Shown here: one piece after another, positions 20,616 through 63,970 of the stretch | How positions within the stretch are numbered: position 1 is the stretch's first letter | Layout of the letters: each line of letters starts with the position of its first letter | Assembly (NCBI GenBank): GCA_002787095.1 | Contig: PCVW01000010.1 | Location: 7,774-71,773 of the forward strand | Length of the DNA: 64,000 nt | Direction: 5' to 3' | From: Candidatus Omnitrophica bacterium CG11_big_fil_rev_8_21_14_0_20_64_10 | Lineage (GTDB): Bacteria; Omnitrophota; Gorgyraeia; 1-14-0-20-64-10 | The notes under the pieces: model-generated | Told to the model about the DNA's origin: nothing | What the model saw: only the letters and a program-made list of their open reading frames with translations | Database searches by the model: none | Translations under genes and position numbers: made by a program

Positions 20616-21530
20616 TCAGCCCTGCCCTCCCGCTTTCCGGGCGATCACGAGCAGGATGTCGAAGACGTCCAGCGTGATCGGGAACCCGGTTCCGGTCCAG
20701 CCCCGTTGTCTCAGCCATTCGTAGAAGCGGCGGCGGCGTTCCGGTTTTCGGTCGGCCAGCAGGCGGTACAGCATGCCGTCCAGCGTCCGGGTGACGCCGA
20801 CCGTCGTCCAAACCTCCGGCTCCAGTCCCCGGTCCCGCAGCAGCCGGCCCAGAGTGGCCCGGGAAAAATAGTGGAGGTGATGCGGCGGGTAATAGAGCCG
20901 CCAGCGCTTCCCCTGCAGGCGGGCCATCCAGGAGCCGACATCCCCGGTGGTCAAGGCCAGCCGGCCGCCCGGTTTCAGGATCCGGGCCGCCCGGTCCAGA
21001 TAGTCGCCGGGATTCCGGAGATGTTCGATCGTGTCCCACATCACGACCCAATCGTAATGGGCCTCGGGCAGCTGAACCTTCAGGAAGTGCCCTTCCCGGG
21101 CCGTCACCTTCAGCGTGTTCCGGGCGTGCCGGATCCCCTCCCCATGAATGTCGATCCCCTCCGATTCCCAGCGGCGCTGGGCCAGCTCCAGGAAGAAGCC
21201 GTAGGCGCAGCCGACCTCAAAGAGCCGTCCCGCCGGTTGGATCCGCCTCAGCCGCTCAACCAGCCTCCGAAAATTCCGCTGCAGCGCCGGTTTGTCCCGT
21301 TGGTAGTCGGCATAGGCCCCTTCGGAGAAAAAGTTCTGTTCGTAGGTTTCGAACAGCTTCTGGTCGGTGTCGGTCCAGGGGACGAACCAGTGGCCGCAGC
21401 TTCGACACCGGAGAAAGGGATAGCCGTCCTTTTCGAACCGGAAATCGTGCTGCCGGTTCCCGCAGATTTCACAGGGGACGGCCTGGGAAGCGGCGGATGG
21501 GCCGGCTGCCCCGGCGGTGACGGGAGTCAC
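20616..21530 (-). CDS. class I SAM methyltransferase with N-terminal Cys4 zinc ribbon (MT3)
   Basis: CEICGN...CRSCGH ribbon, then LFEVGCAYGFF motif I. GTG start at 21530-21528 in a GTGA overlap. Confidence 0.75.
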   Translation of the reverse strand: MTPVTAGAAGPSAASQAVPCEICGNRQHDFRFEKDGYPFLRCRSCGHWFVPWTDTDQKLFETYEQNFFSEGAYADYQRDKPALQRNFRRLVERLRRIQPAGRLFEVGCAYGFFLELAQRRWESEGIDIHGEGIRHARNTLKVTAREGHFLKVQLPEAHYDWVVMWDTIEHLRNPGDYLDRAARILKPGGRLALTTGDVGSWMARLQGKRWRLYYPPHHLHYFSRATLGRLLRDRGLEPEVWTTVGVTRTLDGMLYRLLADRKPERRRRFYEWLRQRGWTGTGFPITLDVFDILLVIARKAGGQG

Positions 21531-22276
21531 GACAGCGCCCTCTGCATCCGAACCAGATTCCGGAAGACCTCCGGCATCCGCCGGATGAGGTTGCGGTATC
21601 CGATCTGCCGGATCTCCCGGATCGGAACGGGGATTTCCCGAATCCGGAGGCCGGCCCGCTGGATTCGAAGCACCAGTTCGGTGTCGAAGATGAAGTGGTC
21701 GGTCACGCAGGCGGCCGCCAGAGTCGAGACCGGTTCCCGCAGGAAGGCCTTCATGCCGTGGGTGTCGGTCCCCTGGAAACCGAAGAAAAGCCGGAGGAAG
21801 CCGTTAAAGCTGCGGGTGATCCAGCGCCGCAGGATCGGCCGGCGATCCCAATCGGTCCGGAGCGTCTTGGAGCCGATCACGAGGTCCGCTTCCCGAAGGG
21901 CTTTCAGCGCTTCCCCGAGGAACTCCGGGCTCCAGAAATCGATGTTAAAGATCACGACCGCCTCCCGGCGGCAGGCGGCGATGCCCCCCTGCAGCGCCCG
22001 GCCGTAGTTGGCTTCCGGAAGACGCAGGGTCCGGACCGCCGGATGGTTTTGGGCAAAGGTTTCGGCCATCGGGCCGGTGGCGTCTGTGGAGCCGTTCTCG
22101 GCGATCAGCACCTCGAACGGCAGTCCCTGCCCTTCGGCGGCTTCCAGGATTCCCGGCAGCTGCTTCGAAAGGACCGGCGCATCGTTGTAGACCGGCACCA
22201 GGACGGAAAAGGAGCCGATGGTTTGTTGGGTCGGTGTCATGGTCTGGGGTTGTGCCTCTTGGAATCCGGTTATCAT
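21527..22276 (-). CDS. polyprenol-phosphate glycosyltransferase (GT2, DPM1/ArnC/GtrB-like)
   Basis: FSVLVPVYNDAPVL...VLIAENGSTDAT...IFNIDFW. ATG at 22276-22274 (MITGFQ...) in an ATGA overlap with the upstream stop. Confidence 0.75.
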   Translation of the reverse strand: MITGFQEAQPQTMTPTQQTIGSFSVLVPVYNDAPVLSKQLPGILEAAEGQGLPFEVLIAENGSTDATGPMAETFAQNHPAVRTLRLPEANYGRALQGGIAACRREAVVIFNIDFWSPEFLGEALKALREADLVIGSKTLRTDWDRRPILRRWITRSFNGFLRLFFGFQGTDTHGMKAFLREPVSTLAAACVTDHFIFDTELVLRIQRAGLRIREIPVPIREIRQIGYRNLIRRMPEVFRNLVRMQRALS

Positions 22277-23790
22277 AGCACCCGCCAGGCCTCGTGCGGG
22301 CCGGATTGGAACAGCCGCTCCACCGTCCCCGCCGGCAGGCGCAGATCCTCGATCGCCGCGTACCGCCGGTCCAGCAGCAGGCCGTTGATTCGGTAAGTCC
22401 GGAGGAAATCCTCGACCGGCTTCCGGAAGACCGGAAAGAAGGGGGCCAGCCGATCCCAGCCGGTCCCATGGGCCCCCCAGAGGACCGCCTTGTCGGTGAA
22501 ATGTGCCAGCGCCTCGGATCGGGTCACCGGCAGGCAGAGCCACCGTTTCTCGGGGCGCTCCTGGATTTTTTCAAAGATCAGCCGAATTTCCGGGTCCACC
22601 ACCGCCATTCGGTTCCATTTCTGCCCCCGGATGGCTTGGAGACTGACCGCCGTCTGAGCCGCCGCCAAACCGAGGCAGATCCAGGCCGGAAGGAAGTTGC
22701 CGGCGGTTTGAGCGGCGGTCCCGGCCCAGGTTCCCAGAAGCAGAAACCAGGGGAAGAGGCCGTAGCGCAGATACTTGAACCCTTCCCCGAACCACCGGCA
22801 TCCCGGAATCCATTGGGTCGCCGCGGCGGTGAGGAATACGAGTCCACTCCAGGCCAAGAAGAATGGTTGATCCGCCCCGGCCCCGGTGTCCGGATGAATC
22901 CCCGATTGCGGGAGACGGCCGGTCATCATGCCGGCCAGGAGACCGGCAATCACGATCAGGTGACCAACCGCCAGAAACCGACTCCATCGGGCCGATCGGA
23001 TCCCCTGCACGCCGGCCAGCTCCCGCTTCTTGGCCGGATCCCGATAGAGGGGGGAATCGTACAGGGGGTGGGCGTTTAGGAACGGTCGGTGGGTTCTCCA
23101 GAAAGCGACGATCTCCCGGTGTCCCCGCATCAGCTTCCGGAAACCAGCGGGATGAACCGCCCACGCGCCGGCAAAAATGCCGACCCCCAGGCCGATCCAG
23201 AGGGGACTGCCGGTGAGGCCGGCCAGGCCGAGGAGCATCGCCGTCATCTGCTGGGTCGTCATCTTGTGGGTCCAGAAGATCGCAATCCCGGCCCCGAGGG
23301 CGATCCCTCCTCCGATCCAGCCCGGCTGGAGCCAGAAGATCAGCAGGCCCCACATGAAGATCGTGAAGAGCAGATTGGCCGCCGGCCGGACATTCAGGTC
23401 GGTCGATTGGGCGACCCCGACCGGGCTGGTCGCGAACAGCCCGCCGGCCAGGGCGGCGCCCAGCCAGGAGCCGGTCCCGGCGGCCACGGCTCCGCTGAGG
23501 AGCGCGGCGTGGAGTCCGTCGATCAAGGGAGAAATCACCCAGTGAAAGCGCTCCCGGAGGCCCTTCGGCAGCAGGGCCAGCGCCCGCGGGAACAAAGGGG
23601 GATAAACCTGTTCCGGATCGTCCAGGAGGTATTGCGGCAACTCCACCGGCCGGAACGGCCCTTTGCGGGCGGCCCGGGCGTAATTCAGGTAATACCAGCT
23701 GTCCACGCCGAACTCCGGCTGCCTCAGCCGCGGCCAGATCCGGAAGCCGAAAGCCATGACCGCTGAAAAGAGGATCGCCGCCCCGATCAT
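22273..23790 (-). CDS. polytopic membrane protein, putative GT-C-like glycosyltransferase / hypothetical
   Basis: About 10 TM segments and a first-loop FGVDSWYYLNYA. It lies immediately upstream of a polyprenol-P GT2, the usual pairing with GT-C enzymes. The ATG at 23790-23788 (MIGAAIL...) gives an ATGA overlap; the track's longer start is rejected. Confidence 0.45.
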   Translation of the reverse strand: MIGAAILFSAVMAFGFRIWPRLRQPEFGVDSWYYLNYARAARKGPFRPVELPQYLLDDPEQVYPPLFPRALALLPKGLRERFHWVISPLIDGLHAALLSGAVAAGTGSWLGAALAGGLFATSPVGVAQSTDLNVRPAANLLFTIFMWGLLIFWLQPGWIGGGIALGAGIAIFWTHKMTTQQMTAMLLGLAGLTGSPLWIGLGVGIFAGAWAVHPAGFRKLMRGHREIVAFWRTHRPFLNAHPLYDSPLYRDPAKKRELAGVQGIRSARWSRFLAVGHLIVIAGLLAGMMTGRLPQSGIHPDTGAGADQPFFLAWSGLVFLTAAATQWIPGCRWFGEGFKYLRYGLFPWFLLLGTWAGTAAQTAGNFLPAWICLGLAAAQTAVSLQAIRGQKWNRMAVVDPEIRLIFEKIQERPEKRWLCLPVTRSEALAHFTDKAVLWGAHGTGWDRLAPFFPVFRKPVEDFLRTYRINGLLLDRRYAAIEDLRLPAGTVERLFQSGPHEAWRVL

Positions 23791-24542
23791 TCGGGGCCCC
23801 TCTGCTCGCAGGCGAGATAGAAACCAGCGCATTGCCCGGGCCAGACGGCGGCCAGCCGCTGCATCAGACGCCAGCCGAAGGCCGGCCAATGGCACCAATC
23901 GAACAGCCGGGTATGGGGGATGAAGAAGTTCTCCCGGAACACCGACCGGATCTCAAAGCCGGCCGCTTCGATCTTCCGGCGGAGCGCCGGTTCGGTGAAG
24001 AAATGGAGGTGGTCGGTTTGCTTCAGGATCTTCGGTTGGACCCAGCGGTTCCGGAGGCGGCCGAGACGGCAGCCTTCGTTGGGCACGCCGAGCCAAAGCC
24101 GGCCGCCCGGTTTCAGGATCCGGCGCAATTCCCGGAGCGCCGAATCGGTCTCCCGCACATGCTCCAGCACCTGCGAGGCCAGGACGCCGTCGAAGACACC
24201 GTCCCGGAATCCCAGCGCCCCGATCTCTCCCAGCGCCAGGCGGGCTTCCGGGAAGCCGACCCGGGTCCGCCGCAGACGGAGGAGATTGAGGTCGCAGCCC
24301 CAGAGGTCGACCCCCGGTCGGCGCAGCGGGGTCATCATCAGGCCGTCGCCGCAGCCGATCTCCAGCAGCCGGATTCCGCTCCGGTTCGACAGATGCCGTT
24401 CGACCTCCTCCTCGATCCAGCGGATCCGCTGCTCGATCGTCCGGCGCATCGCCGGCTGCCGCAGGTAATCTTGCTGGGGATCAGTCTGCCACGGGTCCCC
24501 CGCCGCCCGCCGCTCCCGCAGCCGTTCCCAGTCAGTCGGCAT
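23787..24542 (-). CDS. class I SAM-dependent methyltransferase (MT4)
   Basis: LLEIGCGDGLM motif I; ATG at 24542-24540. Confidence 0.8.
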   Translation of the reverse strand: MPTDWERLRERRAAGDPWQTDPQQDYLRQPAMRRTIEQRIRWIEEEVERHLSNRSGIRLLEIGCGDGLMMTPLRRPGVDLWGCDLNLLRLRRTRVGFPEARLALGEIGALGFRDGVFDGVLASQVLEHVRETDSALRELRRILKPGGRLWLGVPNEGCRLGRLRNRWVQPKILKQTDHLHFFTEPALRRKIEAAGFEIRSVFRENFFIPHTRLFDWCHWPAFGWRLMQRLAAVWPGQCAGFYLACEQRGPE

Positions 24543-26271
24543 CCATCCCCTCCAGGCGCCGGGCGGTTCCGCCCGGAAGGTCCCCCAGCGGGAACCGGCG
24601 GCCGTTCCTGGAAGCGGTCAATTTTGGGAAGACCGCTTCCCCGCCGTTGAACAGTTCCCAGCCGGCGGCCGATTTCCGGATCTCCAGCCGGGCCCAGAGA
24701 TTCATTCGCCGGTAGAGATCCTGGGCGCTGGTCAGCCACCAGCGGTCGTTGAGTTTCCGGAGAGCCGCTTCAAAGGCGGCCAAGGTTCCCTCCGGGCGGA
24801 GGATCCAGCCGCGGGTATGGGCGGGATGAAAAACCCAGAGGTAAGCGCCGCCCGGAAAGGCGTCGGCGAACCGGAAAGCGCGGTTTAAGGTCGCTTCATC
24901 CGGCTCGATCATGCCGCCGCTTTCCCATCCCGCCAGGGGCGTCTGCCGCTCTCGGGAGGCGATGACCGGCCGGATCGGAAAGGAGAACGGAACGCCGGCG
25001 CCGGGATGCCGGATCAGGACCGTTTCCGCGCCGCCGTAGCGGAAGATCTGAAAACGGGAGAAGGAACCGGCCCCCAGAATTTCCGGAAGCTCCCGGAAGA
25101 GATGTTCCAGGGCGAAGAGGTGCTCGGGATAGTGGAGGTAGTGGTAATGCCGATGCAGGGTCCGGAGGGTTCCCAGCCGTTTCTGCGCGGCCCGTACCTG
25201 CGCCGCCAGCCCGCGCGGGCTGACCGCTTCCCGATCGGGGCCCGGCAGTCGTTTGAGCCAGCGCATCCGGGCGCTTTCCAGCCAGCCGGTTCGATTCGAT
25301 CGGTAATGAAGGGCCGTTTCCAGATGCGGGGTTCCCCGCAGCCGTTCTCTCCAGAGTCCGGCCCGCTGGTCGTCCAGCACCGCGTAAGTGGCCGGCAGCC
25401 TCCGATCCCGCTCGATCTCCCAAAACTTCGGATCCGCGGAGTCGTCGGTGTCATGCCGCAGGATGACCGCATGATCCCGTTCCCCCCAGGGTGAGATGCG
25501 CAGGGATTCCAGAACCGAGACGCCGGCGGCCGCCAGGGCCCGGGAGAACCATCGGAACAGCCGGTCCAGGTACCAGGGACTCTCCAGGCCGATCGTTTCC
25601 TTCAGCGGCCACCAGTCGGTTTGCCCCTGCAGGAGTCCCCCCCAATACTCAAAGCAGGGGGCCGGAACCCAGAACAGGTTCCCTTTCCGATGCCACAATC
25701 GGCCGGCCGGCCTGGCGGGCCCCGGTGGGGGGGAAGCGGTTCCCGATCCCTCCGCCAGCAGCGGAGTCCCCGGGTCCGGATCGGGCGATTCCGGCCGGCT
25801 TTCCATGAACCGATAGCCGGGCGGGGCCAGGAACAGCGGCGGGTGCTCCTTTTCGCCGCCCGTCAGCCACCCAGCCAGCCGGCGGCTTCCGTTGGCGGCC
25901 GCTCCGAAGAGCCGGGCGGGCAGGTTCGTCACCCCGGTCACGATGATCTCCGTTTGCCCGGCGGCGGCGATTCGCTCGATTGCCTCGAGGGATTGGGAGC
26001 GGAGGGCCTCCCCTTCCGGGATCCAAAGCTGGTCGGCTTCGTTCATCTGCTTCCAATCGATTTGGGATTCCTCGAGGCGGCGGTGCGGCAGGCCGAGCCG
26101 CCAGAGAAAGTGCCGGCATCCGTTGACCGCCAGGTAGGCGTCGTCCCCCCGGATCCAATGTTCCGTTTCTCCCCCGCCGTTGGAGACCGGATAGAGATGG
26201 TGGGCCGCTTCCGCCCGCCGGGCTTTCGCGACCCGGGAGGATTCGCTGAAAAGGAGGGTGATCCGCTTCAT
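24532..26271 (-). CDS. hypothetical protein (approx. 580 aa); possible NodB-like (HDTDD) hydrolase region
   Basis: No confident family. Internal AVILRHDTDDSADP and later His pairs loosely resemble a metal-dependent carbohydrate esterase. ATG at 26271-26269 (MKRITLLF...) in an ATGA overlap. Confidence 0.4.
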   Translation of the reverse strand: MKRITLLFSESSRVAKARRAEAAHHLYPVSNGGGETEHWIRGDDAYLAVNGCRHFLWRLGLPHRRLEESQIDWKQMNEADQLWIPEGEALRSQSLEAIERIAAAGQTEIIVTGVTNLPARLFGAAANGSRRLAGWLTGGEKEHPPLFLAPPGYRFMESRPESPDPDPGTPLLAEGSGTASPPPGPARPAGRLWHRKGNLFWVPAPCFEYWGGLLQGQTDWWPLKETIGLESPWYLDRLFRWFSRALAAAGVSVLESLRISPWGERDHAVILRHDTDDSADPKFWEIERDRRLPATYAVLDDQRAGLWRERLRGTPHLETALHYRSNRTGWLESARMRWLKRLPGPDREAVSPRGLAAQVRAAQKRLGTLRTLHRHYHYLHYPEHLFALEHLFRELPEILGAGSFSRFQIFRYGGAETVLIRHPGAGVPFSFPIRPVIASRERQTPLAGWESGGMIEPDEATLNRAFRFADAFPGGAYLWVFHPAHTRGWILRPEGTLAAFEAALRKLNDRWWLTSAQDLYRRMNLWARLEIRKSAAGWELFNGGEAVFPKLTASRNGRRFPLGDLPGGTARRLEGMDAD

Positions 26272-27407
26272 CGGGGTTTGACGCCCAGGACGACCCACTG
26301 TTTTCTGAACCGCTCCGGCACCGCCGGTTCCAGGAGGCGGAACAGCCGCTGCGGGAGGAGCACCTCGGTGATCCAGGCGGCGGCGCGGGGAAGCCGGGGG
26401 GAGACCCAACCGTGACTCCAGATCGTTCGAATGTCGAAGCCGGCTTCAGTCATCAGCCGCTCCAGTCCCTCCCGGCTGACATAGCCCTGGACCGGTTCCC
26501 CCGGCCAGAGAGGACGGCCGGTGCGGCGGGTCCAGGGATTGTCCCGGTTGGCCGTTTGCGTCAGCAGCCAGCCGCCCGGTTTCAGGATCCGCCGGATCGT
26601 TTTCAGGGTCCCGGCCGGATCGGGCAGATAGAGCAGGACCCCCATTGCCAGCACCCCGTCGAATGATTCGGGACGGAAGCGGTTGAGGTCTTCGGCTGAT
26701 CCCCGGAGGAAGAGGGCGCCGGGAATCCGGTTCCAATCGGCCTCGGCGATCCGGGGATCGATTCCGACCACTTCATGACCCAGCAGGGCCAGCGGGGCGC
26801 TGTATCGGCCCCAGCCGCAGCCAAGATCGAGGAAGTGTTGCGGGGATCCCTTCGAGGGGATCGGAAGCCGGTATCGCCGGCAGAAGGCGCTTCCCCAATC
26901 GGCCCGGGTTAGGATCCGCTGCTTGAGCCAACGGTCCCGGATCAAACGGATCCATTCGAATGGGAGCAGTGGAAGCGTTGCCAGCTGCCGGATCCATCGG
27001 GCCCGTCGATCGGCCGGCTGCCAGGGGGCCCAGGTCTGGACCGGATGATGTTTGACGACGATCCCCCGCCCGGCCCGCAGGGCGATCAGTTTTTGAAGGG
27101 GGGAGAGCCGTCCATCGTCCCCGCAGGGGAGGAGCCACCCTTCGCCCGGCGTCAGCTTGCGGCGCAAGGCTTGAAGCGGCCCGGTCGCGGTGATCCGGAG
27201 ATCCGGCCGCCTGTTGAGCTCCGGCCACCCGTTCCAGGGGGCCGGCTCCCCCGCCCCGGGGCGGGGGGCGACCCAATAAAGGTGTCGAACGGTTGGAGGG
27301 AGACCCGTTTCATTCGCCGCGGCGGCCTTCGGGTGGAGATCGATCCAGCCGTTAACCCGGCGCCAGTCCGAAGGAATGGCGGGATCCCAGACCGTTTCCA
27401 GCTTCAT
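26268..27407 (-). CDS. two-domain protein: unknown N-terminal domain plus class I SAM methyltransferase (MT5)
   Basis: C-terminal FLDLGCGWGRYS motif I. ATG at 27407-27405 in an ATGA overlap. Confidence 0.7.
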   Translation of the reverse strand: MKLETVWDPAIPSDWRRVNGWIDLHPKAAAANETGLPPTVRHLYWVAPRPGAGEPAPWNGWPELNRRPDLRITATGPLQALRRKLTPGEGWLLPCGDDGRLSPLQKLIALRAGRGIVVKHHPVQTWAPWQPADRRARWIRQLATLPLLPFEWIRLIRDRWLKQRILTRADWGSAFCRRYRLPIPSKGSPQHFLDLGCGWGRYSAPLALLGHEVVGIDPRIAEADWNRIPGALFLRGSAEDLNRFRPESFDGVLAMGVLLYLPDPAGTLKTIRRILKPGGWLLTQTANRDNPWTRRTGRPLWPGEPVQGYVSREGLERLMTEAGFDIRTIWSHGWVSPRLPRAAAWITEVLLPQRLFRLLEPAVPERFRKQWVVLGVKPR

Positions 27408-28840: not shown

Positions 28841-28844
28841 GGGC

Positions 28845-30173: not shown

Positions 30174-30183
30174 GGCCGTCGGG

Positions 30184-50438: not shown

Positions 50439-50446
50439 GGATCGGC

Positions 50447-50896
50447 TCAGCGGTGCTGGATCCGCCAGTCGTACGGGATTGCGCCGCTCGCCGGATCGAG
50501 GCGCTCGATCTCATCCGGATCATGGGGAATCGTCGCGCAGTTGGCCACGATCGCCGGGGTCGTTCCCATCCCCTTGAAGCCGTTCCAGATGAAGGGGGGG
50601 ACCTGCACCAGCTGGTATTGGGACTCCCCGAGGAAGACCTCCTGGATCTCCCCGCGGCTCCTGGAGTCGGGCCGGTCGTCGTACAGCGCCAGCTTGATCA
50701 TCCCGACCGGCACCGCGTAGTTGATCGTCATCCGGGAATGTTTGTGCCATCCCTTGACGACCCCGGGATAGACGGAGGAGAAATAAATTTCCCCGAATTT
50801 CTCAAAATGGGGATCGGTCGCCTTCAGCATGTGCATGACCCGGCCCCGTTCGTCCGGGATCACCTTGAGCGGGATGATCCGCACCCCCTCGATCAT
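50447..50896 (-). CDS. RmlC-like cupin (NDP-4-keto-6-deoxyhexose 3,5-epimerase family)
   Basis: [18 protein letters not shown]...KGWHKH, an RmlC-type fold. ATG at 50896-50894 in an ATGA overlap. Confidence 0.7.
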
Positions 50897-51930: not shown

Positions 51931-51933
51931 CGT

Positions 51934-52767: not shown

Positions 52768-52768
52768 C

Positions 52769-57480: not shown

Positions 57481-58286
57481 CTGCCAGCTCCTTTGTCGGT
57501 TGATTTTGTTCCGACCGCGAAAAAATTCAGGCGGAACGGAAAACTCAAGAACAGGCGCCGCACCTCAAACGGGCCCTGCAGCAGCCGCCGCAGGGTGCCG
57601 GCGCTGAACAACTGGATGTGTCCCATCGCCAGGTCGTCGCTGAGCGGACCCAGGAAACCGCGCAGCCCCAGCCGCTTCAGCATCGTCTTGATCGCCACAA
57701 TCCATCGGTCGTTGGGAACGGAGACGACCAGCCGGCCGCCCGGCGCCAGCACCCGGGCCAGCTCTCCGACCGCTTCTTCCGGCCGCTCCAAATGCTCCAG
57801 CACCTCGGTGCAGAAGATCAGGTCGAGCGAGCCGTCCCGGAACGGCAGCCGGGTCACATTGGCGGCCATCGCCGGAATCGCGGCCGCCGAACCGTTTTTC
57901 CGGCGATTCTCCCGAAGCATCCCCGAATCCAAATCGGCCAGCAGCGACAGACCGGATCCGCCGAGCCGCCGGGCGGTCACCTGCCCTGACTCGCACCCGA
58001 TGTCCAGAATCCTTCGGGCGGGACAATCCCCCAGCCGTTCGGTGATCCGGAACCGCTGCCGTTCGACCCATCGGATCAGCGGATTGGGATGGGCCGATTT
58101 CTGCGCCATCGGATGCGCCCGATTGACCGCCTGATTCCATTCGGCGACGGAAACCGGCTGGTCGTTCTTGAAAAGGAGAAAGCGGCCCCGCGCGTCATCC
58201 CAACGCTTGAGGAAACGGTCCGAACCGACGCGGTAAAGGTGTTCCCCTTCGTTCCAGCTCACGATTGGGACTCCCGTTGGGCCCAT
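57477..58286 (-). CDS. class I SAM-dependent methyltransferase (MT8)
   Basis: ILDIGCESGQV motif I; ATG at 58286-58284. Confidence 0.75.
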   Translation of the reverse strand: MGPTGVPIVSWNEGEHLYRVGSDRFLKRWDDARGRFLLFKNDQPVSVAEWNQAVNRAHPMAQKSAHPNPLIRWVERQRFRITERLGDCPARRILDIGCESGQVTARRLGGSGLSLLADLDSGMLRENRRKNGSAAAIPAMAANVTRLPFRDGSLDLIFCTEVLEHLERPEEAVGELARVLAPGGRLVVSVPNDRWIVAIKTMLKRLGLRGFLGPLSDDLAMGHIQLFSAGTLRRLLQGPFEVRRLFLSFPFRLNFFAVGTKSTDKGAGR

Positions 58287-59230
58287 TTTCGCTGCAGACG
58301 AATGTTCTGCCGTCTGAGCTCCAGCAATTGGGCTGCCAGGAAGGCAAACAACAGGATCTGCAGGCCGAAAAGGAGGCAGAGCAGCGTGACGGTCAGGAGC
58401 GGCCGGCCGGCCACCGGCGTTCCGCCGATCGAGAGCCAGGCGGCATACCCGCCGCAGAGGGTTCCCAGTCCCATCAGGCCCAGGCCGGCAGTCCCGAACA
58501 GCAGGAAGGGGCCTTCCTGAAAACCGAACAGGAGATGGGTCCAGGCGAAACGAAGCAATTTCGCAGAAGGGAATCCCCGCCGTTTCCGTTCCGGCTCCCA
58601 GCGCAGCACCGCCGGGACATCCACTGATCGAAAACCGAGCGCGTAGGCCTTCGAGAGGATCTCCAGATGGATCTCCTTGTCATCCGATTCCAGATCGAGC
58701 GCCCGCAGCACCTCGGCCCGGTAGCAGCGGGTCATCCCCGATGCCATCGTGGTCCGGCGGCCGAGGGCCAGGCAAAGCAGCCGGTTGCCGTACCGGCTGA
58801 GGAAGACCCGCAGCCCCGGAACATTCTCCAGCCGGCCGCCCGGCATGTGCGGGGAGGCGATCGCAAAATCGACCCCGGCGGTTTCCAGGGCGGCCGGGAG
58901 GCGCTCCAGGACGGCCTCCCCCCAGGTCAGATCGGATTCGGTCGAAAGAATCCATTCCCCGCGGGCTTTAGCGAATCCCCGCCGCAGGGCATACCCGCGT
59001 CCCCGGTTCGGGGAATAATCGATCAGATGAATCGCCGGATCGCCGCCGATCGCCTGCCGGGCCGCCTCCCCGGTCCCGTCGGTGGAGCCGTCGTTGACCA
59101 GGATCAGCTCCCAGGAGCGGCCGAGCCGCTGGAGGACGGCACGCAGACGGCCGATGCTCTCGGCGATCTTCGCCGATTCGTTGTACATCGGGCACACCAC
59201 CGACAGTTCAGGTCGCGGAGAGGGAGACAT
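58259..59230 (-). CDS. polyprenol-phosphate glycosyltransferase (GT2, ArnC/DPM1-like) with C-terminal TM helices
   Basis: LSVVCPMYNESAKI...LILVNDGSTDGT...STESDL; two C-terminal TM helices as in ArnC/GtrB. ATG at 59230-59228. Confidence 0.8.
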   Translation of the reverse strand: MSPSPRPELSVVCPMYNESAKIAESIGRLRAVLQRLGRSWELILVNDGSTDGTGEAARQAIGGDPAIHLIDYSPNRGRGYALRRGFAKARGEWILSTESDLTWGEAVLERLPAALETAGVDFAIASPHMPGGRLENVPGLRVFLSRYGNRLLCLALGRRTTMASGMTRCYRAEVLRALDLESDDKEIHLEILSKAYALGFRSVDVPAVLRWEPERKRRGFPSAKLLRFAWTHLLFGFQEGPFLLFGTAGLGLMGLGTLCGGYAAWLSIGGTPVAGRPLLTVTLLCLLFGLQILLFAFLAAQLLELRRQNIRLQRKWAQRESQS

Positions 59231-60308
59231 GTTGTTTCTTCATCAGGATTTTGGCGATCCGTTCGGCCGCCTTCCCGTCCCAAAGCGGAGGGATCTGTCC
59301 CTTCGGCGGCGTTTTCAGCGCCTGGTCGGCCGCCGCGGCGATCCGGTCCGGGTCGGTGCCGACGATCCGGTTGGTTCCCAGGCGGGTGGTGATCGGCCGC
59401 TCGGTGTTTTCCCGCAGCGTCAAACAAGGGATCCGCAAGGCGGTGGTCTCCTCCTGGACCCCGCCGGAATCGGTCAGGAGCAGGGCGGCATGCCGCATCA
59501 GCTTCAGGAAATCAAGATAACCGAGCGGCTCCAGCAGGGTGATCCGATCCTGCTCGGAGGGAAAGCCGGCCGTCCGGAGACGGGCCTGCGTTCTGGGATG
59601 GACCGGGAAGAACAGCGGGAGACGCTTTGCCGCCCGCCGCAGCCCCTCCAACAGCCGGCCGAGGACCTCGGGGCGGTCCACATTCTCCGGCCGATGCAGG
59701 GTGATCAAGCCGTATCCTCCGGCGGGAGCAGTGGTGCGCTCCAGAATGTCGGATCGTTCCGCCAAAGCCAACGAAGCCTGCAGCGTGTCGATCATGACAT
59801 TGCCGACCCGATGGATGCCGGCGGCCGCGACCCCTTCCCGGGCCAAATTCTCATCGGCCTCCTCGCAATGCGTGAAGAGCAGATCGGAGAGGTGGTCGGT
59901 CAGCAGACGGTTCAATTCCTCCGGCATCCCCCGATCCCCGCTGCGCAGGCCGGCCTCCACATGGGCGACCGGAATCCTCAATTTCGCCGCCGCCAGGGCC
60001 GCCGCCAGGGTCGAGTTGACATCTCCGAAGACGATCACCCGATCCGGCCGATCCTGAAGCAGAAAACGCTCGACGCCGACCAGCACGCCGGCGGTCTGCT
60101 CCGCGTGGCTTCCGGAACCGATCCCCAGATTGAAGTCCGGTTTCGGGAGGGCCAGGTCCCGAAAGAAGAGGTCGGACATCGCCGGATCGTAATGCTGGCC
60201 GGCGTGAAGCAGCTTGGCCTGAACCTCCGGCCAACCGCTCAGGGCCCGGATCACGGGGGCCGCCTTCATGTAGTTCGGCCGGGTGCCGACCACGCAGAGG
60301 AGCTTCAC
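59208..60308 (-). CDS. wecB: UDP-N-acetylglucosamine 2-epimerase (non-hydrolysing)
   Basis: KLLCVVGTRPNYMKAAPV...HVEAGLRS...TDSGGVQEE, WecB/MnaA hallmarks. GTG start at 60308-60306 in a GTGA overlap. Confidence 0.85.
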   Translation of the reverse strand: MKLLCVVGTRPNYMKAAPVIRALSGWPEVQAKLLHAGQHYDPAMSDLFFRDLALPKPDFNLGIGSGSHAEQTAGVLVGVERFLLQDRPDRVIVFGDVNSTLAAALAAAKLRIPVAHVEAGLRSGDRGMPEELNRLLTDHLSDLLFTHCEEADENLAREGVAAAGIHRVGNVMIDTLQASLALAERSDILERTTAPAGGYGLITLHRPENVDRPEVLGRLLEGLRRAAKRLPLFFPVHPRTQARLRTAGFPSEQDRITLLEPLGYLDFLKLMRHAALLLTDSGGVQEETTALRIPCLTLRENTERPITTRLGTNRIVGTDPDRIAAAADQALKTPPKGQIPPLWDGKAAERIAKILMKKQHVSLSAT

Positions 60309-61993
60309 GGCCCCGGCTCCAAGGCGTACAGCTCGATGACCGGACCGGGCCGTTTCAGGCGCCACAGATCAATCAAGGGGGTGTGGGAGGAGGGCAGCTG
60401 GCGCCGGTCGGTCTGCCCATCGTAGGGGGTGAACCGGACGACCGGCCGGCCGCCGGCCCGGAGGCGGGCATAGAAAGCGTCCTGCTTCGGCGAATCGGCC
60501 GTTTCAACGAAAGATTCCACAAAATCGGACAAGATCACCCAGGTCACTCCTTGCCGCTGCAGGCGGTCCAGATCGTAGCCATTCTCCATCTCGGGGATCA
60601 GATGCTCCCTCGGGATCAGTTCGATCAACCGGTACCGGGGCCGGGCCGCCGCCTGATTAGCCCGCGCCGACCACCAGAGACCGCTTCCCTTTCCGGAGTT
60701 CCGAGTCGCCGCGGCCAATTGCGCCGACTGTTCGGCGGTCTCCAACAACTGGGGCACCCAGGCCTGAAAGGTCCGACCGTGATCCACCGCCAGCATCGTG
60801 CCGGAGGGAACATGCGCCTCCACCCATTCCCGGGCCAGCCTCCGGGTATCCGGCCGGGTCAGCAGCCAATCGTGCCGGACCGCGGCGGCTCCGTTCGACA
60901 GGAACAACCCCGCCAGAAGCAGCGCCCGCAGCCGGACCGGCCGGCCCTCCATCCAACGGACCGCATAATAAAGCACAAACGGCGCCAGCGGAAGGATGTA
61001 GGCGGCCCGAACCGACCGGGTATAGCTGCCGATCAACAGGCCGTAAGCCAGCATTCCGGCGGTCAGCCAGAGATCCGGCTTGGACGGCTTCCGGAGCGAC
61101 CCTACCCAACCGATCCCTCCGGCCAGCAATCCGATCCAGCTGACCCCAACCGGAAGGTAGACAATAAGATACCGCCACCACCCCCCGGCCGTCCAGGGGG
61201 TATCCGGTTCCCGAAGGACGCCGCCGGCCCCTTCGGCCAGCCGGCCCAGCGTGCCGGCAGTCTCCCCGGCATGGAGGAGGATCGCCGGGTTGACCAGGGC
61301 GAAACAGGCCAGCGCGATCCCCACCGCTTCCAGCGCCGGTCGAAGCTTCGGCGTTCCCTTGGGCTTCAGCCCATGGGCCAGCAGCAGCCCCGGCAGCCAA
61401 AGGGCGAAGTTCCAGTTCATCCCCATCGCCAGACCGGTCCACAGCCCGGCTCCCCAACTGTCCCGCCGCCCGCCTCGAAGCATGGCCCGGAGGGCGAACC
61501 ATGCGGCTCCCACTCCAAAAAAGAGGGCCGGAATGTCCTGCCGGCAATAGTGGGAATCCCGAACATGGAGGAAACAGACCGCCAGGGCCGCCGCGCTCCA
61601 AAGGGCCGTCTTCTCCCCGGCGCCGGTCTCCCGGACGGTCCGGTAAAGGAGCCAGGGAGTGGCCGCGCCGAACCCGGCCGCCATCAGGCGGCCGCCGAGG
61701 ACCCAGGGGGCCGGATTCTGCAGAAATTGCTGCAGGTAAGCGGCGCTGGAGGACCAGAGACCCAACCCCTTCCCCACCAAAAAAGCCGCGGCATATCCGA
61801 CGAAAAGGAGTTCGTGAAAGAGATGCGGGTGGTGGGGGTAATCGACCGCTCCGATCCCCTGCCCGAAGCTGAGAGCGGTCTTGACGGTCATCAACTCATC
61901 CTGGTGGAAAAGATCGGGAAGGCCGAAGGCGATTCCCCAAAGCCGAAGCCCCAAGGCGGCTCCGAAGATGATCCACAGCCAATGCCCCGTCAT
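60305..61993 (-). CDS. GT-C family membrane glycosyltransferase (ArnT/PMT-like, GT39/83)
   Basis: About 12 TM segments, a first-loop HQDELMTVKTALSF (Asp/Glu motif) and a C-terminal periplasmic domain. ATG at 61993-61991. Confidence 0.7.
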   Translation of the reverse strand: MTGHWLWIIFGAALGLRLWGIAFGLPDLFHQDELMTVKTALSFGQGIGAVDYPHHPHLFHELLFVGYAAAFLVGKGLGLWSSSAAYLQQFLQNPAPWVLGGRLMAAGFGAATPWLLYRTVRETGAGEKTALWSAAALAVCFLHVRDSHYCRQDIPALFFGVGAAWFALRAMLRGGRRDSWGAGLWTGLAMGMNWNFALWLPGLLLAHGLKPKGTPKLRPALEAVGIALACFALVNPAILLHAGETAGTLGRLAEGAGGVLREPDTPWTAGGWWRYLIVYLPVGVSWIGLLAGGIGWVGSLRKPSKPDLWLTAGMLAYGLLIGSYTRSVRAAYILPLAPFVLYYAVRWMEGRPVRLRALLLAGLFLSNGAAAVRHDWLLTRPDTRRLAREWVEAHVPSGTMLAVDHGRTFQAWVPQLLETAEQSAQLAAATRNSGKGSGLWWSARANQAAARPRYRLIELIPREHLIPEMENGYDLDRLQRQGVTWVILSDFVESFVETADSPKQDAFYARLRAGGRPVVRFTPYDGQTDRRQLPSSHTPLIDLWRLKRPGPVIELYALEPGP

Positions 61994-61994
61994 C

Positions 61995-63284
61995 TCACCA
62001 GCCCCGCCAGCGGGCGATCATCCCCGCTCCAACCGCCTGCAGCAGCCCCCATCCGATGCCGAGCCCCGCCTTCCATCGGACCGGCCGGCGCTCTCCCCAA
62101 AAAGCGATCCATCCCAATGCCCCCAGCAGCAGCAGAAACGGCTCGAACGGAAGCCGGAAGCGAGGGGAACCATAGAAAAGAAGGGTTTGGAGCAGCAGAA
62201 CCCCCAGGGGGATTCCGATCAACACGACAGCGTGGCCGGTCCGGCGGATTTGCCACGCCCCCCAAAGGATCCAGGGGAACAGCAAGCCGTAGAGCCAATT
62301 GTACCGGGCGGTTCCATCCCGGGCGATGATCTCCCAATCCCAGGGAACCAACAGCGTGCCGAGCCGCAACCCCAGGATCGCCGGCAAACGCCCGGGCGCC
62401 CGCCGGAGCCGGTCCCAAGCGGCCCGGCGGTAGGCCCGGTCCCGATCCACCTCGTCCGGGAGCCGATCGATTCGACGGGCCGCCGCATCATCGGCCGAGA
62501 AGCCGTACCGAACGCCGTCCAGCGGGATCACCGCCGAATAGAGGGCCCTCCCCCCGTCGGTGGAAATCGGCACCCAGCGACCCAATTGTCGATGGTTCCG
62601 GATCGTCCAGAGGCCGATCAAGCTGCAGGCGATGACGCCGGCACAGAGGACCTGCCGCAGCAGCCGGCCGGATTCGGGGCCGGGCCGGCGCAGGCGGTGC
62701 CACGCCGCGGCGGCGGCAGCCGCCGGAACCAGCAACCCCATCCCCGGTCGGGTCAGGACCAGAGCGGCGCAGAGGATTCCCCAGACTATTGCCCGGAGGA
62801 GATGCCTTCGGTCCGCCCAGACTCCTCCCAGCCATCCCATCAGCATCAAGAGGAAGAGGGCCAGATTTTCGGTCAGCAGGGTCCCGCTGAGTCGAACCAG
62901 CGGCGGAGAAACGGCGATCAACAGCCCCGTGAGCCAGCCGGCCGGACAGCCGCCGATCCGCCGGCCGAGGGCGGCCCCGGCCAGGACGACGATCCCCCCC
63001 AGCAGGGCCTGGATCCAGACCACCGCCCGGTGATTTTGGCCGAACAAGCGATAGATCCCGGAGAGGAAGAACGGGTAGCCCGGCGCCTTGAAGGCGGTCG
63101 GTCGGCCGTCGGCATCCAGATAACCCCGCCCGGCCGACAGATCAACCGCCCGCTGGTGGTAGCCCGCCGCGTCCCCGGCCAAGGTCGCCGGCTCGGGGTT
63201 GCAGACGATTCGAAGCCCGACGGCGAGGAGAAACAGGCCGGCCAGCGCCCACCCGGAACGGTTCAAAACGGGAGGAACCTCCAC
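61995..63284 (-). CDS. GT-C family membrane glycosyltransferase (ArnT/PMT-like), second copy
   Basis: AGDAAGYHQRAVDL...GRPTAFKAPGYPFFL, a typical PMT_2/ArnT N-terminal loop. Candidate starts are GTG 63284, ATG 63323, or TTG 63266 (TTGA overlap with the upstream stop); TGA stop at 61997-61995. Confidence 0.65.
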   Translation of the reverse strand: MEVPPVLNRSGWALAGLFLLAVGLRIVCNPEPATLAGDAAGYHQRAVDLSAGRGYLDADGRPTAFKAPGYPFFLSGIYRLFGQNHRAVVWIQALLGGIVVLAGAALGRRIGGCPAGWLTGLLIAVSPPLVRLSGTLLTENLALFLLMLMGWLGGVWADRRHLLRAIVWGILCAALVLTRPGMGLLVPAAAAAAAWHRLRRPGPESGRLLRQVLCAGVIACSLIGLWTIRNHRQLGRWVPISTDGGRALYSAVIPLDGVRYGFSADDAAARRIDRLPDEVDRDRAYRRAAWDRLRRAPGRLPAILGLRLGTLLVPWDWEIIARDGTARYNWLYGLLFPWILWGAWQIRRTGHAVVLIGIPLGVLLLQTLLFYGSPRFRLPFEPFLLLLGALGWIAFWGERRPVRWKAGLGIGWGLLQAVGAGMIARWRGW

Positions 63285-63970
63285 TTGATGATCGCCCAGA
63301 TCACCGCGAAGCCGTGATGCCATCGGATCTTCTTGCCGGCTTTGTAGGAGCGGGGGTTGTATTGAACCGGCACCTCGACGATCTGCGCCCCCCGGCGCAG
63401 GAGCTTGCAGATAATCTCGTTGTCGATGTCGAACCGGTTGGATTGAAGATTCAGTCCCAGGAGCATCGAGCGCTTGCACACCTTGTAGCAGGCCTCGTAG
63501 TCGGTCGCGTAGAAACCGTACAGGCCGTTGGTCAACCCGATCACGAGCAGGTTTCCAAGATAATGGGTCAGGAAGGGGTCGCCATCCTTGGTGAAGAAAC
63601 GGGGTTTTTCCTTGAGGAACCTCGACCCCATCGCGACATCGGCATGCCCGCGGACCACCGGGCCGACCAGCGCCGCGTAGTCGTTCGGATCGTACTCCAA
63701 GTCGGCGTCCTGCACCAGGAACAGCTCCCCGGTCGCCTCCCCCAGGCCGGTCCGGACCGCGGCCCCTTTGCCGCGGTTGCGGGGATGGTCGATGACCCGG
63801 ACCCGGTCGGCCCAACGCTTCAGGCGCTGCCGGGTGTCGTCCGTTGAAGCATCGTTGACCACCAGCACCTCTTTTTCGAGCCCCGGCAACGGGGCGGCCA
63901 GCACCCGCTCCAAGAGGGTGTCCACATTGCCCGCCTCGTTGTAAATGGGAATCACGACGCTCAGCTTCAT
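63263..63970 (-). CDS. polyprenol-phosphate glycosyltransferase (GT2, DPM1/GtrB-like, soluble form)
   Basis: MKLSVVIPIYNEAGNV...VLVVNDASTDDT...LVQDADLEYDP. ATG at 63970-63968. It is the first gene of the window's transcription direction. Confidence 0.8.
   Translation of the reverse strand: MKLSVVIPIYNEAGNVDTLLERVLAAPLPGLEKEVLVVNDASTDDTRQRLKRWADRVRVIDHPRNRGKGAAVRTGLGEATGELFLVQDADLEYDPNDYAALVGPVVRGHADVAMGSRFLKEKPRFFTKDGDPFLTHYLGNLLVIGLTNGLYGFYATDYEACYKVCKRSMLLGLNLQSNRFDIDNEIICKLLRRGAQIVEVPVQYNPRSYKAGKKIRWHHGFAVIWAIIKWRFLPF

Follow-up and report, generated by a model that had tools for sequence, protein, structure and literature searches.

The window, the whole 64,000-nucleotide stretch of DNA that was analyzed, holds the larger part of a ~70 kb surface-glycan cluster of operon-like layout, in which all genes lie on one strand and most gene junctions overlap. 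The source is an uncultured groundwater bacterium, with its MAG labelled Candidatus Omnitrophica by NCBI, and the closest syntenic genome to the cluster is a Planctomycetales MAG (locus L011). Gene boundaries in the calls stored for the source contig matched those of the original prediction. Because it includes 2 GT9 genes, a WaaL-like ligase, a WecA-like initiator, and Wzx-like and Wzy-like genes, the cluster has an LPS context; it is an LPS/O-antigen-type envelope glycan cluster of a diderm PVC-group bacterium. Its main genes are as follows:

7871-8971, minus strand: GT9 heptosyltransferase-family gene (Pfam on gene calls, NCBIfam)
8959-9957, minus strand: second GT9 heptosyltransferase-family gene (Pfam on gene calls, NCBIfam)
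9932-11209, minus strand: Wzy_C/WaaL-like ligase (Pfam on gene calls, NCBIfam)
11206-13008, minus strand: WecA/MraY-family initiating transferase fused to a WbaP-N-like region (Pfam, NCBIfam)
13010-13858, minus strand: CE4 polysaccharide deacetylase (Pfam Polysacc_deac_1)
19311-20615, minus strand: Wzy-like polymerase candidate (Pfam Wzy_C 26 bits, weak)
21527-22276, minus strand: GT2a, divergent DPMS-clade GT2, 249 aa (Pfam Glycos_transf_2 63 bits; clade assignment weak)
22273-23790, minus strand: M1, GT-C_A-fold membrane glycosyltransferase by modelled fold, 505 aa
24532-26271, minus strand: X579, 579 aa soluble protein, member of the M1 module (conserved in M1-family loci)
27404-28840, minus strand: MOP-superfamily (Wzx-like) flippase, neighbor in the M1 module (Polysacc_synt 27.6 bits, weak)
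30184-31278, minus strand: radical SAM/SPASM enzyme (Pfam Radical_SAM and SPASM)
34003-34581, minus strand: hexapeptide acyltransferase, after the DegT gene (gene neighbor)
34578-35741, minus strand: DegT-family sugar aminotransferase (Pfam DegT 388 bits)
42937-44670, minus strand: M2, GT-C_A-fold membrane protein of the DUF6798 family, 577 aa (sole Pfam/NCBIfam match DUF6798; modelled fold)
44667-45626, minus strand: SDR epimerase/dehydratase (NCBIfam scores)
45623-46717, minus strand: GT2d, TuaG/PglI/EpsE-like ordinary GT2 (NCBIfam TuaG 81 bits)
54747-56177, minus strand: M3, GT-C candidate, 476 aa (PMT_2 26.9 bits against a cutoff of 26.1)
56158-57480, minus strand: 440 aa protein with 1 N-terminal TM helix (weak DUF4330 match)
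58259-59230, minus strand: GT2b, GtrB/ArnC-like GT2, 323 aa (Pfam Glycos_transf_2 83.5 bits)
59208-60308, minus strand: UDP-GlcNAc 2-epimerase (Pfam Epimerase_2 354 bits)
60305-61993, minus strand: M4, GT-C membrane glycosyltransferase, 562 aa (PMT 39.1 and PMT_2 39.0 bits)
61995-63284/63323, minus strand: M5, GT-C (PMT_2) membrane glycosyltransferase, 429-442 aa (PMT_2 42.5 bits)
63263-63970, minus strand: GT2c, DPMS/AglJ/PpgS-like polyprenyl-phosphate glycosyltransferase candidate, 235 aa (Glycos_transf_2 115 bits)

The 3 GT2s that had been predicted as DPM1/ArnC/GtrB-like all match Glycos_transf_2 at the positions proposed. They align with one another over the whole catalytic domain, whereas the other GT2s of the window do so by the N-terminal part only, and all 3 appear to belong to the DPMS/ArnC/GtrB clade. 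GT2c has the canonical DAD motif, an amphipathic C-terminal helix, and no TM helices; its top PDB match was DPMS (5mlz, E 5e-19, residues 1-209), followed by ArnC and GtrB, and it aligned full-length with the NCBIfam models AglJ (94 bits) and PpgS (58 bits). GT2b carries ESD as a noncanonical DxD variant and 2 C-terminal TM helices (242-260 and 281-299), an anchor typical for GtrB and ArnC, and matched DPMS (E 1e-16) and ArnC (E 4e-14) in PDB and ArnC (56 bits) and AglJ (51 bits), full-length, in NCBIfam. Its originally proposed start at 59230 is better than the gene caller's 59188, which cuts off the conserved first beta-strand. Full-length NCBIfam alignments of GT2b and GT2c took in AglJ, PpgS, Dol-P-hexose transferase, and ArnC. 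GT2a, with NID as its DxD variant and no TM helices, is the weak assignment (PDB E ~1e-6), matching 6yv7 (E 9e-7), DPMS (5e-6), and ArnC (3.5e-5), and aligning over ~200 aa with GT2c (E 7e-11) and GT2b (E 9e-9). The 3 enzymes probably make lipid-linked sugar donors for the GT-C enzymes.

At 54.7-64 kb, the gene order is GT2c, M5, M4, the 2-epimerase, GT2b, a methyltransferase, the 440 aa protein, and M3. M5, with ~9 TM helices and the first-loop motif GDAAGYHQRA, overlaps the 3' end of GT2c by 22-61 nt. M4 combines a first-loop HQDEL with a C-terminal soluble domain of ~190 aa, and its sole PDB match by sequence was yeast Pmt1 (6p25, E 3e-5); the 2-epimerase gene lies in the 1075 bp between M4 and GT2b. 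The 440 aa protein had no NCBIfam match, the body of the protein is presumably periplasmic, and its gene overlaps the start of M3. M3 has ~10-11 TM helices and a first-loop GDGYVYAHNGY and is a probable GT-C, its Pfam PMT_2 match being borderline. The PMT/PMT_2 matches (that of M3 just above cutoff) agree with the original description of M4 and M5 as ArnT/PMT-type and of M3 as GT-C-like. Neither M4 nor M5 had a close relative in the genome or metagenome collections searched. The proposed adjacency of GT2s to membrane proteins was also borne out by GT2c and M5, by GT2b and M4 at their 1075 bp distance, and by GT2a and M1, with genes overlapping by a shared ATGA.

M1 and M2 had been named as candidate GT-Cs, and structure prediction with fold searches models both as GT-C folds. 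M1, which had no match in Pfam or NCBIfam, is a member of a rare family not placed by sequence searches; D30 in its first loop is kept in 12 of the 12 sequences covering that site, and its C-terminus forms a small globular domain superposing on the AglB-S2 domain. The conserved module to which M1 belongs as a core member also has Wzx-like, rSAM-SPASM, GT4, AsnB, X579, and methyltransferase genes, and it recurs without an adjacent DPMS-like GT2. The radical SAM/SPASM enzyme is its most conserved partner (7 of 9 loci, 39-64% identity). X579, with no Pfam or NCBIfam match, reaches 54% identity in L017, 46% in L011, and 34% in L007 and L009. The Wzx-like protein (~10 TM helices) is 52% identical to its L011 ortholog, with further homologs in L007, L009, L014, and L015. 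The L011 ortholog of the Wzy-like candidate (39% identity) directly follows the M1 homolog there. A GT2a-like gene stood beside the M1 homolog in 0 of 9 related loci (L007-L011, L014-L017), none of which has a GT2a homolog, and GT2a is therefore a lineage-acquired accessory, not an obligate M1 partner; the GT2a-M1 pair originally proposed is not supported.

M2 gave ArnT as its best Foldseek match and has an AglB-like globular domain at its C-terminus. The first-loop Asp is present in 26 of 36 DUF6798-family members and replaced by His in M2, which may thus be catalytically atypical. M2 is a stand-alone GT-C of this family and has no adjacent GT2. M1 and M2 represent 2 GT-C families not placed by sequence searches.

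The cluster thus counts 5 GT-C enzymes against 3 candidate polyprenol-phosphate synthases, and we consider it reasonably likely that these 5 GT-C_A enzymes and 3 DPMS/GtrB/ArnC-clade GT2s act via lipid-linked donors, on putative donors and acceptors. Going by family membership, GT2a, GT2b, and GT2c would, on the cytoplasmic side of the membrane, load polyprenyl phosphate with single sugars from nucleotide sugars. A flippase, for which the MOP/Wzx-like protein is one candidate and an 8-TM LPG_synthase_TM protein encoded 2 genes upstream of GT2c, just beyond the window, is another, would then move these lipid-linked sugars across, and the GT-C enzymes would add them periplasmically to the O-unit or polymer, the LPS core, or envelope proteins. 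For an LPS-type envelope glycan cluster in a diderm, the most reasonable reading is that lipid-linked donors are used at the periplasmic face, as first proposed. It holds especially for GT2c-M5-M4-GT2b-M3, and not for GT2a-M1, a pair that is not conserved. The block from GT2c through M5, M4, the epimerase, and GT2b to M3 convincingly fits the known synthase/flippase/GT-C scheme of 3 components, in which the flippase can be of MATE/MOP type and the GT-Cs can carry additional C-terminal domains (PMC11127046).

The prototype of such 3-component periplasmic modification is GtrA/GtrB/GtrC of Shigella/Salmonella O-antigen glucosylation, which the cluster resembles in its GtrB-like GT2b with a C-terminal TM anchor, its GT-Cs, its LPS/O-antigen context, and the adjacency of synthase and GT-C genes. 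In contrast to Gtr, no small (SMR-type) flippase of the GtrA or ArnE/F type was found in the cluster, 2 of the GT2s lack TM helices, as do DPM1, PpgS, and AglJ, and 3 synthase candidates and 5 GT-Cs sit inside the main cluster rather than in a single phage-borne gtr cassette. The cluster is an unusually well-equipped yet recognizable case of a known decoration system.

A different donor for M1, and possibly M2, is conceivable but unlikely: a Wzx-flipped polyprenyl-diphosphate oligosaccharide in place of a polyprenyl-monophosphate sugar, with M1 as an OST-like or polymerase/ligase-like enzyme moving glycan en bloc to protein, lipid, or polymer. M1 and M2 share with PglB/AglB/STT3 (GT66) a 13-TM-like GT-C_A architecture and a small C-terminal domain superposing on AglB-S2, but this domain is much smaller than in GT66, the WWDYG and DK/MI motifs are absent, and no sequence link to GT66, family profile included, appeared at E<=10. 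A small alpha/beta periplasmic domain occurs in ArnT too. By Z score, M1 came closest to Pmt4, which uses a monophosphate donor, with ArnT, ALG12, and AftA about level with OSTs. Further, Wzy-like and WaaL-like proteins in the cluster already cover polymerization and ligation, and Und-P-sugars can be flipped by a MOP/MATE protein (PMC11127046). The closest analogy for the Wzx-like and M1 pairing is the Citrobacter youngae ORF15/ORF14/ORF12 pentofuranose system (GT136; PMC11127046), in which a GT-C likewise carries an additional extracytoplasmic domain at its C-terminus and adjoins a MOP/MATE flippase in an O-antigen cluster; its PRPP-dependent polyprenyl-phosphoribose synthase (UbiA-like), however, was not seen here, and GT2s are the candidates for the synthase role. 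M1 and M2 had no sequence similarity to the named families compared, GT136 not being among these.

That M4, perhaps with M3 and M5, is a PMT-like protein O-glycosyltransferase acting on envelope or secreted proteins seems rather improbable to us. The Pfam PMT match of M4 (39 bits), its sole PDB relative by sequence, and the DPMS-like character of GT2c speak for it, as do the very long surface proteins encoded by Omnitrophota (preprint 10.64898/2026.06.07.730766). Against it, PMT_2 is broad and takes in ArnT-like lipid and glycan transferases, and the M3-M5 genes sit inside an LPS/O-antigen cluster. Compared with Dol-P-Man synthase with PMT and with archaeal AglJ/AglD-AglS, the context is bacterial LPS, MIR and PMT_4TMC domains were not detected by Pfam, and a protein acceptor is hypothetical.

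We give little credence to an Arn-like pathway placing aminopentose on lipid A or core through a UXS/ArnA-type decarboxylase, DegT/ArnB, GT2/ArnC, CE4/ArnD, and GT-C/ArnT. The top solved relatives for GT2b and GT2c include ArnC, and the top fold matches of M1 and M2 include ArnT. A CE4 enzyme is present, DegT scores 290 bits against ArnB, and an SDR at 14682-15665 gives full-length alignments to UXS (138.5 bits) and to the C-terminal domain of ArnA (135.6 bits). However, the PseC model outscores ArnB for DegT (328 bits), whose gene precedes one for an N-acyltransferase, GalE, LegB, or 4,6-dehydratase models give the higher scores for both SDRs, and the CE4 enzyme weakly resembles PgaB/IcaB/NodB in NCBIfam; all pathway scores are far under equivalog cutoffs. 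The genes are spread across >30 kb amid deoxy-sugar pathway genes, ArnE/F is absent, and no UDP-glucose dehydrogenase (Ugd) was found on the contig. The lack of a formyltransferase noted originally was upheld, as the Formyl_trans domain is absent from Pfam results for all genes of the contig. The "UXS-type decarboxylase" of the original prediction was probably the SDR at 44667-45626, which is better as GalE (158 bits; LegB 137) than as UXS (66) or ArnA (53), all under cutoffs, and that identity was not confirmed. The deacetylase is real, although it lies outside the interval given (21527-63970) and 20-30 kb from the SDR and DegT genes, and the suggested echo of arn is not supported.

A transporter or polymerase identity of the large polytopic proteins, in place of GT-C, has a negligible probability, and the original prediction, which had named transporter families as its refutation, stands on this point: Pfam GT-C matches are absent for M1 and M2, and 2 M2-family members weakly match EpsG (a Wzy-like family), but fold searches rule this out for both, and none of the 5 is a transporter.

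GT2d aligns with GT2c across the N-terminal ~97 aa only, which places it outside the polyprenyl-phosphate clade. The original prediction had not listed ordinary glycan-extending GT2 genes in the window at 45623-46717, 4271-5872, and 5836-6936, along with a GT4 gene at 53542-54750.

A continuous map of approximately 60 genes was obtained by combining stored gene calls from ERZ27293412:k141_715396, a 75,728 bp metagenome contig in ENA whose record coordinates equal window coordinates plus 7744, together with its precomputed Pfam hits, and direct Pfam and NCBIfam scans; exact protein matches to the window were also identified on Logan SRR6240784 contigs. The GC content of the window is 65%, and the minus strand holds almost all real genes, with junctions that overlap or abut. 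The region is an LPS/O-antigen-type envelope-glycan supercluster, in which we identified the following features:

11206-13008, initiating transferase, a 600 aa fusion with ~13 TM helices
21527-22276, GT2a, candidate DPMS/GtrB/ArnC-clade GT2 enzyme
22273-23790, M1, polytopic GT-C candidate
27404-28840, MOP/Wzx-like flippase, with a separate Wzy-like protein also on the map
42937-44670, M2, polytopic GT-C candidate
54747-56177, M3, polytopic GT-C candidate
58259-59230, GT2b, candidate DPMS/GtrB/ArnC-clade GT2 enzyme
60305-61993, M4, polytopic GT-C candidate
61995-63284/63323, M5, polytopic GT-C candidate
63263-63970, GT2c, candidate DPMS/GtrB/ArnC-clade GT2 enzyme
~65914-66879 (L001 1106-2071), LPG_synthase_TM protein, MprF-flippase-domain-like with 8 TM, two genes upstream of GT2c and past the right end of the window
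Two GT9 heptosyltransferase-family genes
A Wzy_C/WaaL-like protein, a CE4 deacetylase, and several GT4 and GT2 enzymes
A deoxy-sugar pathway (nucleotidyl-transferase, 4,6-dehydratase, RmlC-like, and RmlD-like) with two sugar C-methyltransferases
A DegT aminotransferase and two hexapeptide acyltransferases
Three amidotransferases of the AsnB type, one of them shortly past the window end
Two radical SAM enzymes, one B12-radical-SAM and one radical-SAM/SPASM
Approximately 11 SAM methyltransferases

The eight proteins GT2a-c and M1-M5 named in the original prediction are real, and their boundaries agree with independent gene calls; that prediction did not list a GT4 (53542-54750) or three GT2s of the ordinary kind. 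The N-terminal half of the initiating transferase is of the WecA/MraY type (Glycos_transf_4), and it is joined to a region similar to the membrane/CoA_binding_3 portion found N-terminally in WbaP/WcaJ-type phosphoglycosyl transferases. The sugar C-methyltransferases (Methyltransf_13/14, TylC3-like), at 1719-3005 and 49200-50369, each adjoin 4,6-dehydratase/epimerase genes, and from the presence of two separate enzymes the glycan should contain two branched-chain deoxy-sugars. Only one syntenic region was identified in reference genomes, in an uncultured Planctomycetales MAG, and from this synteny and the NCBI name Candidatus Omnitrophica we take the host to be a diderm of the PVC group. As the NCBI copy carries the Candidatus Omnitrophica label and the closest synteny is to Planctomycetales, the binning or taxonomy is possibly worth checking.

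GT2b and GT2c are well supported by sequence as members of the DPMS/GtrB/ArnC polyprenyl-phosphate clade, and the placement of GT2a there is plausible, in line with the DPM1/ArnC/GtrB-like character that had been proposed for all three. Pfam Glycos_transf_2 scores are 63, 83.5, and 115 bits for GT2a, GT2b, and GT2c, respectively. The closest solved relative of GT2c is the Pyrococcus Dol-P-Man synthase 5mlz (E 5e-19), followed by ArnC and GtrB; the best PDB matches of GT2b are the Pyrococcus Dol-P-Man synthase (E 1e-16) and ArnC (E 4e-14), and the archaeal membrane GT2 6yv7 and GtrB are among the best solved relatives of both. Whole-protein NCBIfam alignments of GT2b and GT2c were obtained with AglJ, PpgS, a haloarchaeal Dol-P-hexose transferase, and ArnC. 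PDB matches of GT2a are weak (E 1e-6 to 1e-4) and include the same families plus chondroitin synthase. Within the window, mutual alignments of GT2a, GT2b, and GT2c cover the full domain, with GT2a matching GT2c at E 7e-11 and GT2b at E 9e-9, both over ~200 residues; matches of GT2d (45623-46717, TuaG/PglI/EpsE-like) and two upstream GT2s are confined to the first ~90-130 residues, which correspond approximately to the nucleotide-binding half. The three-way alignment has the motifs YNE, (N/D)GSTD, and xxD in common; the DxD metal-binding motif reads DAD in GT2c, ESD in GT2b, and NID in GT2a, with the second Asp alone invariant.

Enzymes of this clade are anchored to the membrane either by a TM hairpin at the C-terminus, as in GtrB and ArnC, or by amphipathic interface helices, as in the DPM1 and PpgS types. 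GT2b ends in two TM helices, like GtrB and ArnC, and GT2a and GT2c have none, their C-terminal tails being basic and amphipathic when read by eye. We infer that the acceptor of the three enzymes would be a lipid phosphate, the product expected of the clade being a polyprenyl-monophosphate sugar. In the stored call, GT2b begins at 59188 (309 aa), which cuts off the first beta-strand with its conserved 'LSVVCP'; an ATG at 59230 (323 aa), the start that had been proposed originally, is therefore the more likely one. A 533 aa protein at 4271-5872 carries tandem GT2 domains, with residues ~5-125 and ~278-373 each matching the N-terminal half of GT2c.

Among the membrane proteins, Pfam matches were identified for M4 (PMT and PMT_2, 39 bits each), M5 (PMT_2, 42.5 bits), and M3 (PMT_2, 26.9 bits, barely over the curated cutoff of 26.1). 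The hydropathy scan gave ~9-11 TM segments in M1, M2, M3, and M5 and at least 7 in M4, and first-loop motifs read by eye are 'HQDEL' in M4, 'GDAAGY' in M5, and 'GDGYVY' in M3. Pfam, topology, and these motifs together point to M3-M5 being probable GT-C enzymes. M4 shares the PMT N-terminal domain with GT39 protein O-mannosyltransferases but differs from them in its C-terminal part, where no MIR or PMT_4TMC match was found by Pfam. No close relatives of M5 were identified in the genome collection, nor of M4 in the metagenome collection.

No Pfam or NCBIfam match was found for M1, and the sole match of M2 is to the C-terminal DUF6798. Single-sequence searches of M1, M2, M3, and M5 against PDB chains returned nothing meaningful; the M1 family profile had no match to PDB sequences at E<=10, and the M2 family profile had chance-level matches only (E ~0.6), to an unrelated enzyme. 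Since neither sequence nor profile yielded a solved relative for M1 and M2, the fold searches alone are informative here, and they place both proteins in the predicted GT-C_A fold. Transporter identities for M1 and M2, on which the GT-C proposal could have failed, were ruled out by the same searches. Comparison of the M1 and M2 families by hhalign gave a probability of 7.7%, and single-sequence M3, M4, and M5 against the M1 and M2 profiles gave <10%, the method being too insensitive to link or separate them in either case.

GT-C_A enzymes are expected to have a conserved acidic catalytic residue where the first extracytoplasmic loop begins, and the M1 and M2 families differ at this position. 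D30 of M1, the first-loop Asp ('GVDxWY'), lies at the N-terminus of the first juxtamembrane helix and is present in 12/12 members covering the region, and D91, N133, R135, SPxY, and WGxH are likewise invariant in the M1 family. Homologs of M2 were collected by exhaustive HMMER search, as a word-indexed search returned M2 itself alone. The usual first-loop Asp of DUF6798 ('LYPxDYL', 26/36 members) is His in M2 and three other aligned members, and E36 and D39 of M2, near the first-loop position, are unconserved in the family. Distant DUF6798 proteins (L012, L013) are encoded by stand-alone genes in unrelated neighbourhoods.

The best-supported reading of these enzymes is three-component extracytoplasmic glycosylation, in which a synthase of polyprenyl-phosphate sugars works together with a flippase and a GT-C; Gtr and Arn are its prototypes, and there is a recent extension to a MATE flippase with a GT-C carrying a C-terminal carbohydrate-binding domain (PMC11127046). 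The GT2 synthase would load a sugar on polyprenyl phosphate, the flippase would move the lipid-linked sugar, and the GT-C would then glycosylate outside the cytoplasm. The 54.7-64 kb block, with two candidate synthases and three GT-Cs of the PMT_2 type, fits this scheme best. The gene adjacency originally described was recovered, with an ATGA overlap of M1 and GT2a, an overlap of GT2c and M5, and 1075 bp between GT2b and M4, where a UDP-GlcNAc 2-epimerase gene is located.

No small multi-TM GtrA/SMR or ArnE/F-type protein was identified in the cluster, and flipping is accordingly the least defined step of the scheme. Candidates for this role are the MOP/Wzx-like protein at 27404-28840 and the LPG_synthase_TM protein, the latter being a candidate lipid-linked-sugar flippase in view of the lack of a GtrA-type protein in the cluster. 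Past the right end of the window, the LPG_synthase_TM gene is accompanied by the third AsnB-like amidotransferase and a methyltransferase.

The pairing of GT2a with M1 as a synthase/GT-C unit, originally read from their adjacency, is not conserved. We compared nine M1-homolog loci (28-45% identity; L007-L010, and, located with a four-sequence alignment as query, L011 and L014-L017) by tblastn with all window proteins, and a GT2a-like gene was identified in 0/9. The radical-SAM/SPASM enzyme was present in 7/9 loci (39-64% identity) as the most conserved member of the module, and the MOP/Wzx-like protein in 6-7/9. GT4, AsnB, methyltransferases, and X579, a domain-less 579 aa protein, were also recurrent, and in many cases DegT and a hexapeptide acyltransferase accompany the module. 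As the module recurs and none of the loci has GT2a, we regard GT2a as an accessory gene of this lineage and M1 as a core component of the Wzx-containing module. Adjacency in a single genome can thus mislead, and the comparative context ties M1 to the Wzx/rSAM-SPASM module.

The recurrent module (window 22273-35741) was found across PVC-type metagenome contigs, the loci compared being L007, L009, L010, L011, and L014-L017. L011, the locus in the Planctomycetales MAG, is collinear with the window over ~13-31 kb, with identities of 64% for rSAM-SPASM, 52% for Wzx, 46% for X579, 44% for M1, 39% for the Wzy-like protein, 49% for CE4, and 70% each for the NTP-transferase and the dehydratase, and with the GT4s and DUF218 also collinear; GT2a is absent, and ~160 bp separate the M1 homolog from the next gene, which is Wzy-like. 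In L017, a GT87-family GT-C lies between two 315 aa GT2 genes (4814-7910), of which one shares 32% identity with GT2c, so that this GT2c-like GT2 flanks a GT-C other than M1. This is a further synthase/GT-C arrangement in a cluster of similar type. The best scores of the rSAM-SPASM enzyme are to metalloenzyme-maturase-type SPASM models, which is odd in a glycan cluster. X579 (24532-26271) is soluble, has no Pfam or NCBIfam match, contains an 'ILRHDTDDS' stretch, and is conserved beside M1 homologs (46% in L011, 54% in L017, and 34% in both L007 and L009).

Two readings of M1 are available. By analogy with the Citrobacter system, M1 may be a monophosphate-donor GT-C whose donor would be flipped by the neighbouring MOP protein. 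Alternatively, M1 could act as an OST-like or ligase-like enzyme on a Wzx-flipped diphosphate-linked glycan, which we consider unlikely. The conserved pairing with Wzx, superposition on STT3, AglB, and PglB over long stretches at low rmsd, and an AglB-like C-terminal domain favour an OST-like role; against it stand the higher Z to Pmt4, the missing WWDYG, no sequence link to GT66, and separate Wzy-like and WaaL-like proteins in the cluster. The WWDYG motif is found neither in M1, which reads 'VLWGAHG', nor in M2, and the resemblance of both to GT66 OSTs (PglB/AglB/STT3) is limited to the fold and a small domain at the C-terminus. In a more specific form, which we hold to be distinctly improbable, M1 would found a new GT-C family and would also transfer a Wzx-flipped, heavily tailored oligosaccharide as a whole to an acceptor such as an envelope protein. 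The MOP flippase, M1, radical-SAM/SPASM, GT4, AsnB, X579, and methyltransferases would then form a self-contained module and, if true, a new bacterial glycoconjugate pathway in place of side-chain decoration. The M1 family has about a dozen known members, mostly on PVC-type metagenome contigs.

We also followed the suggestion that a UXS-type decarboxylase, a DegT aminotransferase, and a CE4 deacetylase echo the arn pathway. No match to Formyl_trans or UDPG_MGDP_dh (Ugd) was identified in direct Pfam scans or among the contig's precomputed Pfam hits, which bears out the earlier remark that a formyltransferase is missing and the decision to withhold an arn identity; the echo itself is not sustained. 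What is probably the supposed decarboxylase, an SDR at 44667-45626, scores 158 bits for GalE, 66 for UXS, and 53 for ArnA in NCBIfam. Another SDR, at 14682-15665, aligns with UXS and ArnA-C (~136-138 bits), with LegB and dTDP-glucose dehydratase scoring higher. DegT scores 328 bits for PseC vs. 290 for ArnB and is followed by an acyltransferase gene, and the CE4 deacetylase, which exists but at 13010-13858, outside the interval in which it had been placed, is PgaB/NodB-like in NCBIfam. All these scores of the SDRs, DegT, and CE4 are far under equivalog cutoffs. With better GalE/LegB, PseC, and PgaB scores and neither Formyl_trans nor Ugd found on the contig, an arn pathway identity was rejected.

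The system type and its mechanism (lipid-phosphate sugar synthase, flippase, and GT-C) are already well established, and no current concept is challenged. The main practical outcome is annotation, with two sequence-orphan membrane families, the M1 family (no Pfam model) and DUF6798 (about 480 representatives; not mentioned in the searched literature), now assignable to the predicted GT-C_A fold. A modest novelty is the definition of a conserved Wzx/M1/rSAM-SPASM module. The density of GT-Cs in one cluster is unusually high, and five GT-Cs, three lipid-sugar synthase candidates, and tailoring enzymes document elaborate envelope-glycan tailoring in an uncultured PVC/Omnitrophota-type bacterium; an Omnitrophota genome preprint covers LPS/capsule glycosyltransferases in generic terms only.

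Some of the remaining genes have features of their own. Within the glycan biosynthesis operon (window 35738-39003), a protein of 565 aa has a precomputed Ulvan_lyase_N match; a direct Pfam scan of the longer ORF 35741-38062 gave no match. This protein adjoins the B12-binding radical SAM enzyme (ApyD/HpnJ/BchE-like, 217-188 bits, below cutoffs). A 279 aa protein at 6929-7768, without a Pfam match, has the N-terminus MKIAAVYCIYNEGEYL, similar to the GT2 first beta-strand/YNE motif, and, adjoining the GT9 genes, may be an unrecognised glycosyltransferase.
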